Shown here piece after piece: positions 1 through 4,221 of a DNA stretch of 64,000 nt. The stretch's first letter is position 1, and the number at the start of each line of letters is the position of its first letter. The stretch comes from Thermoanaerobaculia bacterium (GTDB lineage Bacteria > Acidobacteriota > Thermoanaerobaculia > UBA5066), in contig CAVRAY010000002.1 in the NCBI GenBank assembly GCA_963719225.1, positions 640,001 through 704,000 of the forward strand, read 5' to 3'. The notes below the pieces were generated by a model that worked only from the letters and a program-made list of their open reading frames with translations, did not search any database and was not told the DNA's origin. Position numbers and translations under genes: made by a program.

Positions 1-52
1 CGCTCGCCGGAGACTGCGCGAGAAGACCGAGGAGGACGTGGGGGAGGGACAC
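1..52 (-). CDS. PadR-family transcriptional regulator, N-terminal 17 codons (runs off the left edge)
   Basis: My translation from GTG at 52 gives MSLPHVLLGLLAQSPAS, matching the typical PadR/AphA N-terminus (MSLxHxLLGLLxxxPxSGYDL). A TATACT hexamer lies 6 nt upstream. Not in the ORF track. Confidence 0.7.
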   Translation of the reverse strand, partial: MSLPHVLLGLLAQSPAS

Positions 53-62
53 GCCCCGAGTA

Positions 63-78
63 TATGACTCTTCACATA
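63..78. promoter_or_regulatory. Palindromic operator TATG-N8-CATA overlapping the PadR gene promoter
   Basis: TATG (63-66) and CATA (75-78) abut the -10 hexamer at 59-64 (minus strand). PadR-family proteins commonly autoregulate through short AT-rich palindromes; the assignment is inference. Confidence 0.4.
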
Positions 79-140
79 CCGGGGTGGAAAACCCGTGCGG
101 TTCTCTGTGGAAATCCGCCATCCCGAATCGGCCGGCGGAC

Positions 141-170
141 AAAAAAATAAGGGGGCTGGTGTAGCCCCCG
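141..170 (-). terminator. Rho-independent terminator
   Basis: Minus strand reads GGGGGCT-ACACC-AGCCCCC-TTATTTTTTT: a perfect 7-bp GC stem plus U tract, about 45 nt after the small ORF stop. Confidence 0.85.
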
Positions 171-213
171 AATCCCGGAAATACCTTGGATTGAGTGAGT
201 TGAATGAAAGGGC

Positions 214-276
214 TTACTTCTTCCCCTTCTTCCCCTTCTTGGTCGACTTCTTCGCAGCTTTCTTCTTGGCCGGCAT
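214..276 (-). CDS. 20-aa lysine-rich small protein MPAKKKAAKKSTKKGKKGKK
   Basis: ATG at 276, TAA at 214-216. GAGGAGGTGA Shine-Dalgarno ends 8 nt upstream. Has its own promoter and terminator. 11 of 20 residues are Lys. Below the ORF-track size cutoff. Confidence 0.75.
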   Translation of the reverse strand: MPAKKKAAKKSTKKGKKGKK

Positions 277-297
277 GGTTTCTGTCACCTCCTCACT

Positions 298-389
298 GGC
301 AGGTTTCGTTGACAGTGCCGGAAGCTGCATGCTAGCTTGGCCGCCCCTCGAAGGACGGGGACTAGCGCTTCCGGATTCTGTCGACTGCC
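298..389 (-). ncRNA. Long structured 5' leader hairpin upstream of the Lys-rich small ORF (unassigned RNA motif)
   Basis: Nested complementary segments (plus-strand letters): GGCAG 298-302/CTGCC 385-389, GACAG 311-315/CTGTC 378-382, CCGGAAGC 318-325/GCTTCCGG 367-374, GCTAG 331-335/CTAGC 362-366, with an apical GC hairpin. I do not recognise it as a named family. Confidence 0.5.
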
Positions 390-493
390 TCGATTCACTC
401 GTTGACGTCGATAAGTTTCAAAGAACCTGGTTCCCGTGGGACGGCATCGTGAGCTTCGATCACGGCGCCGTCCCTTTTTTCTTCCTGTCGAGA

Positions 494-523
494 ATTGTAT
501 AGAGGCTTCACATGGCGAATCAA
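494..523 (-). promoter_or_regulatory. Sigma-70 type promoter for the small-ORF transcript
   Basis: Minus strand TTGATT (523-518), 18 nt, TACAAT (499-494), with an AT-rich tract upstream. Predicted TSS near 487. Confidence 0.6.
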
Positions 524-634
524 GAATTTTTTTCTTGACGCGTGAAGTTTCTTTCACCTGACGTCCTCGACCCGTCGAGGGGTCTCGCGCGCATCCGGGC
601 TAGGATCGCGCACGGAGACATTCGGAGACATCGC

Positions 635-1483
635 ATGACGGACTCACTCGTGCTCGCTCACTCGCCCGACTCCGACGACGCGTTCATGTTCTACGGACTG
701 CGCGCGAACGCCGTCGACACGGAGGGCGTCAGGTACACGCACACGCTCGCCGACATCGAGACGCTCAACCGGCGCGCGCTCGCGGGCGAGCTCGCGATCA
801 CGGCGGTTTCGTTCCATGCGTACGCGTACCTCGCGGACCGCTACGTGCTCCTGCCGCACGGCGCCTCGTTCGGCGACGGGTACGGGCCGTGCGTCGTCGC
901 GCGCCGCGCGGGCGGCCCGGAGACGCTCGCGGACCTCACGGGCCGGCGTGTCGCGATTCCCGGCGCCCTCACGTCCGCCGCGATGTGCCTCTCCCTCTAC
1001 GCGAAGGGGGCGACGCCCGTCGTCATGGCGTTCGACCGCGTCGGGGACGCCGTGAACGCCGGAGAGGTGGACGCGGGCGTCGTGATCCACGAGGGGCAGC
1101 TCACGTGGAAGGACGAGGGGTTCCGCCTCGTCGCCGACTTCGGCGTCGTGTGGAAGGAGGAGACGGGCCTCCCGCTCCCTCTCGGCGGCAACGCCGTCCG
1201 CCGCGACCTCGGGCCGGAGCTCATCGCGCGCGTCTCCCGGGCGCTCGGGCGGTCGATCGCGTACGCCCTCGACCACCGCGAGGACGCCCTCACGGACGCG
1301 ATGCGCTTCGCCCGCGGGCTTCCGCGCGAGAAGGCGGACCGGTTCGTCGGCATGTACGTGAACGACTGGACGCGGTCCTACGGGCCGAGGGGGCGCGAGG
1401 CCGTCCGTCTCTTCCTGAAGAGAGGCCACGAGGCCGGGATCCTCCCGCGGCTCGTCGAGCCGGAGTGGGTGGCGGAGGGTTGA
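635..1483 (+). CDS. mqnD: 1,4-dihydroxy-6-naphthoate synthase, MqnA/MqnD family (futalosine menaquinone pathway)
   Basis: Motifs AHSPDSDDAFMFY, DIETLN, GVVIHEGQLT, LPLPLGGN, MYVN. Start moved to ATG 635, preceded by GGAGA. Confidence 0.8.
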   Translation: MTDSLVLAHSPDSDDAFMFYGLRANAVDTEGVRYTHTLADIETLNRRALAGELAITAVSFHAYAYLADRYVLLPHGASFGDGYGPCVVARRAGGPETLADLTGRRVAIPGALTSAAMCLSLYAKGATPVVMAFDRVGDAVNAGEVDAGVVIHEGQLTWKDEGFRLVADFGVVWKEETGLPLPLGGNAVRRDLGPELIARVSRALGRSIAYALDHREDALTDAMRFARGLPREKADRFVGMYVNDWTRSYGPRGREAVRLFLKRGHEAGILPRLVEPEWVAEG

Positions 1484-1487
1484 AGGC

Positions 1488-1991
1488 GTGACGAAGGGAG
1501 AGCGCGCTCTCGCCGGGACGTTTCTGTTCGTCGCGGCGCTCTGGTGCGGGACGCTCGCCTTCTTCGGGGCCTTCGGCGCCTGGGTCGTCCTCGAGACGTC
1601 GCCGAGCCGCCACGCGGCCGGGGCCGTGAACGCGGCGCTCCTCGACGTCCTCGACGCGGTCTCGCTCGGCGCCGCGCTTCTCCTCGCGGCGGGCCTCGTC
1701 CTCTGGAACCGTGCGCGGCCCTGGACGGCGCGCGCGCGCGGCTACGCGGTCCGCTTCCTCGCGGTCGCGGCCGTCGCGGCGGCGGCGTCGCTCTTCGTCG
1801 TGACTCCCGAGATGATGGAGCGTCGCGCCCGCATGGGACCGATCGAGCTCGTGCCGAAGCAGGATCCCGCGCGAGCCGCCTGGGGCCGTCTCCACGGCAT
1901 CTCGTCGCTCACGCTCCTCGTGCGGCTCGCCGCCTCCGCGGGAGTCTTCGCGGCGGGCTTCTCGCAGATCCCGAAGGGCGAAGCCCGGTAA
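1488..1991 (+). CDS. DUF4149/TMEM205-like small membrane protein
   Basis: Four hydrophobic helices, SRHAAG, VTPEM and C-terminal WGRLHGISS pattern. Lies 4 nt after mqnD. Confidence 0.7.
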   Translation: MTKGERALAGTFLFVAALWCGTLAFFGAFGAWVVLETSPSRHAAGAVNAALLDVLDAVSLGAALLLAAGLVLWNRARPWTARARGYAVRFLAVAAVAAAASLFVVTPEMMERRARMGPIELVPKQDPARAAWGRLHGISSLTLLVRLAASAGVFAAGFSQIPKGEAR

Positions 1992-2001
1992 CCGGCCGCG
2001 C

Positions 2002-2880
2002 TCAGGCCGCGTGGTGGAGAAAGAACTCCGTCCACCTGCGCTCGTACTCCTCGGGCACGACGGCCTGCGGCTCGTCCGCGTGGTGGCAGTGCCCGCAGGC
2101 CGGCACGCGCCAGAACGTCTTCGGCCCGGCGAGCGCCTCGTAGAGCCGCGGCGAGAAGCGGATCGGTACGAGCGCGTCCGTCTCGCCGTGGACGACGGTC
2201 ACGGGACACGTGACGCGCCTCGCCGCGGCGACGGGGTCCGCGCGCGCGAGGTCGAGGCCTTCCGTCCTCTCGACCCGGCGGACGAGGAGTCGGACGGGCC
2301 CCTCGAGCAGGACGCGCGGCAGCCCGGTGGCACGATGGAGGTAGTGGACGGCCATGACGCGCAGGTCGCCGAACGGCGACTGGAGCCAGAGCGCGGCGGG
2401 CGTCCGGGCGGCCGCGAGCTGCAGCGCGAGGAGGGAGCCGAGCGAGCAGCCGTCGATTCCGAGGCGGGCGGCCGTCACGCCGAAGCGCGCGCCCGCGAGA
2501 TCGAGAAGCAGGAGGAGGTCGGTCGTCTCGCGGATCCCGTACGTGATGCGAGCTCCCGTGGAGGGCGGATGCCCGCGCAGGTGAGGGACGAGGACGTTGA
2601 ACCCGAGCCGCAGGGCGCGCACGGCGTCCCGCGTCCACTCGGCGGCGCCTCCGCCCTTGCCATGGAGGAAGAGGAGAGTCGCGCGCGTCTCGGGGCGCCC
2701 CGGGGACGCGAACAAGGTCACGAGGCGGGCGGGTTCGGCGGGGTCTCCGTCGTGAACGAGCGTCTCCACGAGCCCGGAGCGCCCGGCCGCGGTCCGGACG
2801 GCTTCGTGGAAGGCCTCGACGGACGCCGTCACGGGTGCGAGCCCGACCGGCGAGAGGAGGATTCCCGCGAGCGAGCGCAT
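2002..2880 (-). CDS. Alpha/beta-fold hydrolase
   Basis: FLHGKGG oxyanion region, nucleophile motif GCSLG, VVHGETDALVP and GHCH. Confidence 0.8.
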   Translation of the reverse strand: MRSLAGILLSPVGLAPVTASVEAFHEAVRTAAGRSGLVETLVHDGDPAEPARLVTLFASPGRPETRATLLFLHGKGGGAAEWTRDAVRALRLGFNVLVPHLRGHPPSTGARITYGIRETTDLLLLLDLAGARFGVTAARLGIDGCSLGSLLALQLAAARTPAALWLQSPFGDLRVMAVHYLHRATGLPRVLLEGPVRLLVRRVERTEGLDLARADPVAAARRVTCPVTVVHGETDALVPIRFSPRLYEALAGPKTFWRVPACGHCHHADEPQAVVPEEYERRWTEFFLHHAA

Positions 2881-2898
2881 GCGCGGCGGCCGACCGGC

Positions 2899-4221
2899 TC
2901 AGGAAGCCTTCGCGGTCTTCTTCTGGACGCCCGCGTCGGCGGCCGCGCGGTAGGCGGCGTTCTGCGGCTCGAGCGCGGCGGCCCGCTTCCACGCGGCGGC
3001 GGCGCCGGCGGCGTCCCCCGTCGCTCCGAGCGCCTGCGCGAGCGCCGCCTGCGCGGCGGCGTCCTCGCCCTGGGAAAGCGCGACGGCACGCCGCGCCTGC
3101 TTGAGCGATTCGGCGGAGTCCTTGAGCGCGAGCGCGGCACGCGCCGCGCGCGTCGCGAGGCCGGCGTCCAGGGCGCCTCCGCCCGTCGTGAGCGCGGCCG
3201 CGAAGGTCTTCTTCGCCTCGGCGGGGCGACCCGTTGCCGCGTATGCCTCCGCGAGGTCGAGCGCGCGCTCGACCCGCACGCCGGAAGCGGCCCCGTTGCG
3301 CTGGGCCGCGGCGCTCGCGCGCTCGTACGCCGCGAGAGCCTCGGCGGCGTGACCCGCTTTCTTCTCGGCCCCGCCGAGCGCCGCGAGGACGTCGGCGTCG
3401 TACGGGCCGTTTTCGCCGACGGCGGCGAGCGTCTCGGCGGCCACGGTGCGCGCCGTCGCGACGTCGCCCCGCTCCCCGAGCGCCGTCACGTACGCGGCGG
3501 CGAAGAATCCGCGCCGCGGATCGTTTCCGAGCCGCGGCAGGAACGTCGCGATGAGGTCGCCGGTCTCGGGGGAGTGGTCGTCGTCGAGCGTCTCGATCGC
3601 GACGAGCTGCGCGAAGAGCTGGAAGACCTCGGGACGGGACAGGTCCCCTTCCTCGGAGACGATCCTGAGGGCGATCGGCCTCAGGCGCACGCGGTCCCGC
3701 CTCAGGGCGAGCGCGTTGCCGAGGCGAAGGGCGTCCTCTCGGTTCCACTTCGTCTTCAGGTTCGCGAGGCCCTCGAGGAGCGGCGTCTTCGACTCGAGGA
3801 TGGCGTCGCCGCCGCGCATGAAGTCGGCGGCCTGGTATCCGCCGACGAGACGGTCGATCTCGTTTCCGTCGCCATCCAGGAACAGGACCGTCGGGAACGA
3901 GAACGCCTGGTAGCGGGCGGAAATCTTCCGGCCCTCGCCCTTCTCGGCGTCGACGCGCGCGGGCACGACGGATTTCTTCGCCCAGGCGACGACTCCCGCG
4001 TCCGCGAACGTCGTTCGGTCCATGATCTTGCAGGGCCCGCACCAGGATGCGACGACGTCGAGCATGACGGGCTTGTGCTCGGCCTTCGCGCGCCTCAGGA
4101 CCTCGGCGAAAGGCCGTCCCTCGCTGAAGGGCACGTGGCCGGCGGGCAACGCCGCGTCCGCGGCGAGAAGGGAAAGAGGGGCGGAGAAGGCCGCAACGAG
4201 GAGGAACCGGGAGAGTCTCAC
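2899..4221 (-). CDS. Secreted thioredoxin-domain protein with C-terminal TPR-like repeats
   Basis: Signal-peptide-like start at GTG 4221, WCGPCK active site, FPTVLFLD cis-Pro loop, Ala-rich TPR-like helices. The upstream part of the track ORF (to 5151) is shadow of truA. Confidence 0.8.
   Translation of the reverse strand: MRLSRFLLVAAFSAPLSLLAADAALPAGHVPFSEGRPFAEVLRRAKAEHKPVMLDVVASWCGPCKIMDRTTFADAGVVAWAKKSVVPARVDAEKGEGRKISARYQAFSFPTVLFLDGDGNEIDRLVGGYQAADFMRGGDAILESKTPLLEGLANLKTKWNREDALRLGNALALRRDRVRLRPIALRIVSEEGDLSRPEVFQLFAQLVAIETLDDDHSPETGDLIATFLPRLGNDPRRGFFAAAYVTALGERGDVATARTVAAETLAAVGENGPYDADVLAALGGAEKKAGHAAEALAAYERASAAAQRNGAASGVRVERALDLAEAYAATGRPAEAKKTFAAALTTGGGALDAGLATRAARAALALKDSAESLKQARRAVALSQGEDAAAQAALAQALGATGDAAGAAAAWKRAAALEPQNAAYRAAADAGVQKKTAKAS

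Follow-up and report, generated by a model that had tools for sequence, protein, structure and literature searches.

Near the beginning of the 64,000-nucleotide stretch of Thermoanaerobaculia DNA analysed here, which we call the window, two genes frame a short transcription unit on the minus strand. On one side lies a divergent menaquinone-biosynthesis gene of the MqnD type (PF02621; 542..1483, plus strand), whose true start is probably an ATG near 635, and on the other the probable start of a PadR-family regulator gene (PF03551; 1..52, minus strand), which continues beyond the window. An initial annotation had proposed, in an AT-rich setting, a promoter, a long leader, a strong Shine-Dalgarno (SD) sequence, an open reading frame (ORF) for a lysine-rich microprotein and a clean intrinsic terminator. 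All these parts are found on the minus strand where it had placed them, and the local GC content of 53–56% compares with 70–80% in most of the flanking genes. We compared them with 68 loci from 68 genomes of one Thermoanaerobaculia order (37, 25 and 6 from its families f1, f2 and f3), 42 chosen by BLAST and 26 by pattern; these genomes are kin and not independent.

The microgene has a sigma-70-type promoter (TTGATT-18-TACAAT, 494..523, minus strand) with a predicted start near 487. It is the sole such site in positions 1–3000, where shuffled sequences give 0.0 ± 0.2, and a −10-like box occupies the matching position in 63 of the 68 loci. An A-tract inside an inverted repeat (TCAAG...CTTGA, 520..538) overlaps the −35 box and may represent an UP element or an operator; within the displayed part of the alignment the repeat is kept throughout family f1, and in f2 it is unrecognisable. 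One could guess at an operator, possibly for the adjacent PadR protein. The 5′ leader of about 211 nt (277..487, minus strand; mostly 155–222 nt in relatives) belongs to a stably predicted minus-strand fold (z = −3.0 for 141–488) and leads to the SD sequence GAGGAGGTGA (285..294, minus strand), of which GGAGGTG is invariant in 48 of 48 aligned loci. The ORF MPAKKKAAKKSTKKGKKGKK (214..276, minus strand), assigned from sequence and conservation, encodes 20 amino acids, 11 of them lysine, with a charge of about +10.5 and no hydrophobic segment. Behind it follow a conserved 3′ UTR motif, AAGGTATTTCCGGGAT (172..187, minus strand), which can pair with leader positions 437–427 in family f1 only, and an intrinsic terminator (141..169, minus strand; stem 169–151, T-run to 141) conserved in the alignment. 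A further conserved element, TTTCCACAG, was observed at window positions 80–115 and at the same place in L002–L028, about 30–45 nt behind the terminator and upstream of padR; we take it to resemble a DnaA-box-like or regulator site. Single-site statistics do not set the SD sequence or the terminator above chance: the SD octamer GGAGGTGA occurs twice in the window against 1.88 expected, and one terminator was found where shuffles give 1.5 ± 1.1. The case for the gene rests on conservation.

The region was detected by BLAST in 45 of 61 genomes, the own genome counted, and a pattern for the leader was matched by 71 of the order's 74 other genomes (24/27 in f1, 43/43 in f2 and 4/4 in f3); one unpublished f2 genome, G037, enters only such tallies. 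Six loci were dropped from the comparison, two of which (L025 and L026) reach the contig end before the ORF, and four of which are weak matches without an ORF. The SD sequence and the lysine-rich ORF are kept in all 68 loci, promoter and terminator are conserved in the order, and no homologous locus was seen to lose the ATG, the SD sequence or the frame. Changes in the ORF are mostly synonymous: among 24 genus-level ORFs, synonymous variation adds 13 codon types and replacements add 2 amino acids; for 16 ORFs of 19 codons the corresponding numbers are 17 and 5. The alanine, threonine and glycine positions are also under selection. Selection on the lysine-rich ORF at the protein level is thereby established as far as sequence comparison reaches, and we regard the microgene as virtually certain to be real, in agreement with the earlier view of a conserved stand-alone gene for a basic microprotein that gene callers miss. 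Two longer candidates were rejected, a 42-aa ORF with a TTG start (395–523), which begins inside the promoter, and a 38-aa extension from an ATG at 330, where most relatives have ACG. A second copy of the locus in G000, at C2:178124, lies inside a collinear inverted block of more than 80 kb with 70–85% identity (C2 approximately 83,000–223,000 versus approximately 608,000–699,000); given 6.2% contamination, a second species or an old duplication is likelier than a specific paralogue.

Transcription of the microgene is weakly hinted at by public RNA data, which comprised contigs from 8 runs of 8 studies out of 24 listed. Contigs of relatives cover the ORF and part of the leader in all eight runs, and four of the eight have nothing outside 165–479 within the stretch 60–660, where uncovered stretches count as no evidence. 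One contig (X3, 173–381) differs at 7 positions and has a depth of 260. The contigs X1 and X2 cross the sense promoter, so that carry-over of DNA is possible, and the contigs come without strand, start or level. High expression, as initially inferred, would agree with the presence of relatives' contigs in all eight runs, but it gains little weight from them because they carry neither strand nor level. We discarded a processed 5′ end at 381, where contigs X2 and X3 stop, because X2 shows a loose adapter end and none of the six remaining runs has the same stop.

The initial annotation had also suspected elaborate control by the leader. What emerges is more specific: a complete transcription unit of the opposite strand, missed both by that annotation and by a simple promoter scan, overlaps the leader. 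Its promoter, of the sigma-70 type and almost perfect (TTGACA-18-TAGCTT, 309..338, plus strand; TTGACA at 309–314, extended −10 TG at 330–331, TAGCTT at 333–338), is present in 68 of 68 loci with a spacing of 17 or 18, and the −35 box lies 26–32 nt from the ATG in every one of them. Across the 42 loci picked by BLAST, no variation is seen in the extended TG or, within the −10 box, in the TA and the two final T, and positions 3 and 4 of the box vary, as promoter selection would give. The window contains one such site against 0.00 in 100 shuffles, and the 4.75-Mb genome contains three, two of which are the copies of the microgene locus. The promoter would produce a cis-antisense small RNA of about 139 nt (343..481, plus strand; 106–154 nt in relatives; z = −4.5 for 345–481), predicted to consist of a short 5′ hairpin, a rod closed by a helix of 355–365 with 427–437, and a terminator. 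The terminator (438..480, plus strand; hairpin 438–474, T-run 475–480) is likewise found in 68 of 68 loci. At least four T within 8 nt behind the hairpin occur on the plus strand in all 68 loci and on the sense strand in none, and a separate count of the T-run gave 62 of 62, with 6 loci unanchored.

Comparative folding supports an RNA read from the plus strand to different degrees for its different parts. In 23 f1 sequences, 10 of 14 consensus terminator pairs have changed on both sides (RNAalifold), which is strong covariation; in f2 and f3 the T-run abuts the sense −10 box and can partly be explained by this without a terminator. Every one of the 68 loci has a more stable closing helix on the plus strand than on the sense strand, and in 59 the helix outdoes at least 95 of 100 shuffles. 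In the 25 f2 and f3 sequences, 91.5% of its cells pair, and its G-U pairs would be A-C on the mRNA. Twelve cells have changed on both sides, a number reached by 1 of 500 shuffles, but the counts of both-side pairs and of pair types in these sequences are no better than shuffles, and RNAalifold on the gappy f1 alignment did not recover the helix. Searches against Rfam gave no match in the window, none at E ≤ 10 in positions 1–700 and none over the element in 10 related loci, whose 4 matches all lie elsewhere in the loci. The RNA is neither 6S nor SRP RNA, both of which are encoded elsewhere, on contig C1, and it is not a coding RNA, as 18 weak starts are scattered over the 68 loci with none common across families. 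The conservation of promoter, terminator and strand-specific fold is established by the comparison of loci, and the presence of all three in 68 of 68 loci leads to a cis-antisense RNA overlapping the leader, which we consider very probably real.

An RNA transcribed across the leader might also have its own targets or bind a protein as an independent, trans-acting molecule, the overlap with the leader being secondary. Such a role might be suspected from its own conserved fold, from a promoter that is among the three best matches in the genome and from the weak effect predicted on the ribosome site, as described below. The RNA is, however, fully complementary to the leader at a fixed distance from the ATG in 68 of 68 loci, it is neither 6S nor SRP RNA, and among the metagenome matches listed it is found with 20 of the 22 forms that have 11 basic residues and with 0 of 84 other short forms. 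We therefore give independent action a low probability and continue with an RNA directed at the leader.

Such an antisense RNA would pair with the upstream two thirds of the leader. There the mRNA is predicted to form a helix, P1, in which 389–378 pairs with 315–311 and 302–298 (298..389, minus strand), ending just before the SD sequence, and which may keep this sequence free. In 48 sequences, 95.4% of the P1 cells are paired and 10 cells carry changes in both partners, a number reached by 0 of 500 shuffles; counted by pair, only 3 have both partners changed, a count that 176 of 500 shuffles reach. The side containing the antisense −35 box never changes, and the partner strand wobbles. Pairing with the antisense RNA, whose apical loop in f2 and f3 carries most of the complement to the 5′ arm of P1, could open this helix. 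When the complementary region was kept unpaired, the cost of opening the ribosome site rose by more than 1 kcal/mol in 41 of 54 loci and fell in none, a test that left out 14 of the 68 loci and had no shuffled control. Blocking the 5′ arm of P1 alone raised the cost in 15 of 31 loci, compared with 45 of 155 control windows; in 5 loci, the window's among them, the cost fell. A refolding switch that sequesters the SD sequence looks doubtful, since its energetics are weak and the alternative helix flanking the SD sequence shows no both-side change (500 of 500 shuffles as high). Pairing between the 3′ UTR and the leader beats 95% of shuffles in 14 of 37 f1 loci, 0 of 25 f2 loci and 0 of 6 f3 loci. 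Because these finer tests are weak, we place decay of the duplex by RNase III and interference between the facing promoters ahead of a pure refolding switch. The pairing would yield a duplex of 100–140 bp, a substrate for RNase III, and the sense and antisense promoters, which face each other, might interfere. In the mechanism as a whole, the antisense RNA would hold down a polycationic peptide that binds and compacts nucleic acid by charge. The peptide would appear only once activity of the antisense promoter falls, as might happen during starvation or dormancy, which is the least supported step. For an antisense-limited polycation that coats nucleic acid, taken as one complete mechanism, we see the arguments as evenly balanced.

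After the initial methionine, 28 distinct peptides contain 314 K, 156 A, 42 T, 32 G, 20 S, 17 P, 4 V and 1 R, and no acidic or aromatic residue. In the 68 loci the length ranges from 18 to 28 residues, yet the charge stays between 10 and 13, and exactly 11 basic residues are found in 59 of the 68 peptides (range 10–13). Fixed charge with varying length fits charge-driven rather than shape-specific binding. The N-terminus MA(T/A)KKK is fixed and the sequence is nearly fixed within families; the peptide of the window lacks a KPAA repeat, and some relatives have AKKP-type repeats. None of 10 peptides is present in a collection of about 15 billion proteins. Pfam gave no match for the window's peptide and NCBIfam none for 9 peptides, both searches of low power at such length, and the PDB gave none at E ≤ 10, a weak test for a 20-residue low-complexity query. 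A published description of the element was not found in the literature, in which the supplements of non-coding RNA and small-protein surveys could hold it. The main texts of two genome-wide surveys of non-coding RNA do not mention Acidobacteria, and a term search of PMC4833913, PMC11109978 and PMC8632094 returned nothing on the element.

Shorter relatives of the peptide gene extend beyond the order. Within the phylum Acidobacteriota, to which the survey was confined, at least 10 families outside the order have short homologues of 12–34 residues (f13, f22 in 6 of 6 genomes, f46, f51, f56, f86, f91, f103, f108 and f109, with only the SD sequence and ORF seen in f108 and f109). Their leaders are short where upstream DNA was read, and the spacers shift freely. 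The antisense promoter was found at 0 of 17 loci outside the order, and the same test detected it at 16 of 16 loci of the own order. Exact patterns matched 58 of 401 and 47 of 401 genomes of the phylum and 6 of 121 in another class, many of the matches being longer proteins; since the patterns are strict, these counts set minimum values, and the distribution looks patchy. Of the genomes from other orders of the class, 27 were pattern-positive, and none of the 14 examined had the ORF. A loose pattern scan of genome contigs was set aside because most of its 119 loci were unrelated promoters in reverse orientation; the peptide was seen in acidobacterial records only. In metagenomes, at least 106 closed short lysine-rich ORFs occur among the 121 matches listed. 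Among these matches, 95 short ORFs have a terminator and 20 an antisense promoter, and all 20 have 11 lysines; the 72 forms of at most 17 residues have the sense promoter in 72 cases and the antisense promoter in none. As judged from these sequences, the peptide gene is the more widespread part, and the antisense gate was found only in the own order.

Several other lysine-rich reading frames came to light in these surveys. The short forms L290–L407, which end in KKKKH or KKKKK, have their own conserved leader hairpins, with GCAAGGGAAAA or GGGAGAA before the SD sequence and often a GAAGCAC terminator loop, a candidate RNA motif. Versions of 80–176 aa that start with the same MATKKK (L225–L227 in family f27, L252, L342 and L399) continue in KKATK, KKAPA or KKVAK repeats and might link the micropeptide to full-size H1-like proteins. 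Two genomes have two peptide genes at different places (L240 and L241 in G542; L236 and L257 in G663), and both L241 and L257 lie behind a type II/IV secretion ATPase gene. On viral contigs (L409–L528), 23 of 120 pattern matches are closed short lysine-rich ORFs (e.g., L412, L416, L418–L420, L427 and L428). None of the 23 has a terminator, and 19 have 16–20 basic residues in 21–31 aa, often with Arg at the end; they could be a separate family of protamine-like peptides for packing phage genomes.

The best reading of these data is a minimal polycation resembling a histone H1 tail, which would have nucleic acid or polyphosphate as its ligand and whose level an antisense RNA would keep low. By analogy, the peptide would be a disordered polycation comparable to the tail of histone H1, AlgP or Hc1 and might coat DNA, RNA and perhaps polyphosphate; binding of polyanions in general is a reasonable inference. 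Its Lys/Ala-rich, low-complexity and strongly basic sequence has the character of H1-like proteins, and no curated family model (0 in Pfam, 0/9 in NCBIfam, at the low power noted) recognised it. Hc1 is several times longer than the micropeptide, with no sequence family match between them. According to PMC3469542, HctA (Hc1) of Chlamydia condenses the nucleoid and blocks growth of E. coli, which the small RNA IhtA relieves. Both systems comprise a histone-like basic protein whose production is limited at translation by a small RNA, here a predicted one, but condensation is demonstrated for Hc1 and only proposed for the micropeptide, and IhtA is trans-encoded with a short pairing region, whereas the antisense RNA gene here lies in cis within the leader. 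The micropeptide and its antisense RNA would work most like HctA/IhtA, but in cis. The KPAA-repeat tails of AlgP and PhaF from Pseudomonas bind to DNA, to RNA and to polyphosphate granules (PMC9239181, PMC12818456), so the ligand of the peptide cannot be told from its composition. These tails and those of histone H1 are equally Lys/Ala/(Pro)-rich and predicted to be disordered, but they are long and attached to folded domains, whereas the peptide of 12–34 residues is free and has no other domain.

A peptide of this size could alternatively occupy an rRNA pocket as an ultra-short protein that is part of the ribosome or associated with it, its supply being tuned by the antisense RNA. The known ultra-short ribosomal proteins bTHX, bS22, bL37 and eL41 are Arg-rich and of fixed length. 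Like them, the micropeptide is tiny, very basic and, at a size below the limits of gene callers, easily missed, and a strong monocistronic unit in many lineages (with the sense promoter in 72 of 72 short metagenomic forms among the matches listed), a fixed N-terminus and a near-fixed sequence within families would suit a ribosomal component. However, the length varies over 12–34 aa with freely shifting spacers, the basic residues are lysine with 1 Arg in 586 residues, the exact-pattern range is patchy, and no solved ribosomal chain, nor any Pfam or NCBIfam model, was matched, the PDB search being weak for such a query. We consider this role unlikely.

The polyanion might, on the other hand, be chiefly polyphosphate, with the peptide acting mainly as a granule protein. 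In 5 of the 6 genomes of family f22 (L529 and L531–L534), the neighbours of the peptide gene are ppk1, ppx/gppA or CHAD genes, in one f91 and one f56 genome (L536 and L537) it adjoins genes for an ABC ATPase and phoU, and AlgP and CHAD proteins occur on polyphosphate granules (PMC9239181). Such neighbourhoods account for only 7 of 20 wide regions, probably by shared descent, and the neighbours differ elsewhere: the own order has the fixed place between mqnD and padR, f46 has MerR with DUF1572 or other genes, and f51 has dnaE. We find a main role in polyphosphate granules improbable.

The arrangement of the locus also recalls type I toxin-antitoxin systems, of which hok/sok and ldr/rdl have a comparable layout. 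As described in PMC5416894, aapA1/IsoA1 combines a small ORF, a long structured leader and a complete antisense unit. Here too, a predicted cis-encoded antisense RNA gene, with promoter, terminator and fold in 68 of 68 loci, lies over the mRNA of a small protein, and pairing between the 5′ and 3′ ends might occur in part of f1; it was not found in f2 or f3. A hydrophobic segment, which defines most type I toxins (PMC6563280), is contradicted by a GRAVY of −1.98 and by the lack of any hydrophobic residue after Met in 64 of 68 peptides; the micropeptide is wholly hydrophilic. Its chromosomal place is fixed, and most lineages have no antisense unit, the antisense promoter being absent from 17 of 17 loci outside the order and from 72 of 72 short forms among the matches listed. 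Because it lacks a hydrophobic segment and occurs widely without the antitoxin, we do not file the locus as a type I toxin-antitoxin system, for which there is little likelihood. Finally, attenuation of a downstream gene by a leader peptide that responds to charged tRNA-Lys is most improbable. It might be suspected from the 11 Lys codons ahead of a terminator and from the PadR gene that comes next on the same strand in 10 of 14 own-order loci scanned, but the downstream genes have no connection with lysine and in other lineages frequently lie on the opposite strand, the stop codon is about 45 nt ahead of the terminator, and selection also acts on the Ala, Thr and Gly positions.

In summary, protein collections lack a conserved gene with a strong promoter that occurs in several classes of Acidobacteriota. 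Its product, read as an H1-tail-like polycation, is close to the smallest imaginable histone-H1-like protein, and in the own order it is accompanied by an undescribed antisense RNA. Soil and wetland Acidobacteria carry the unannotated gene for this half-lysine micropeptide, which likely coats and compacts DNA or RNA, and in the own lineage the antisense RNA is predicted to turn its gene down. A bolder and rather doubtful extension holds that a free polylysine micropeptide of fixed charge is a protamine-like chromatin or condensate switch in Acidobacteria, gated in the own order by an RNA in the style of type I antitoxins. It would be a dormancy switch that does not act on the membrane and consists of nothing but a polycation, present in a phylum that is among the most abundant in soil and escaping both annotation and tryptic proteomics. 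The peptide is cheap to synthesise, and the cassette of 350 nt can be tested in E. coli. If the main reading is true, two known ideas, H1-like compaction and type I antisense control, would be combined in a novel manner, and there would be a handle on DNA packing or entry into dormancy in slow-growing soil bacteria.
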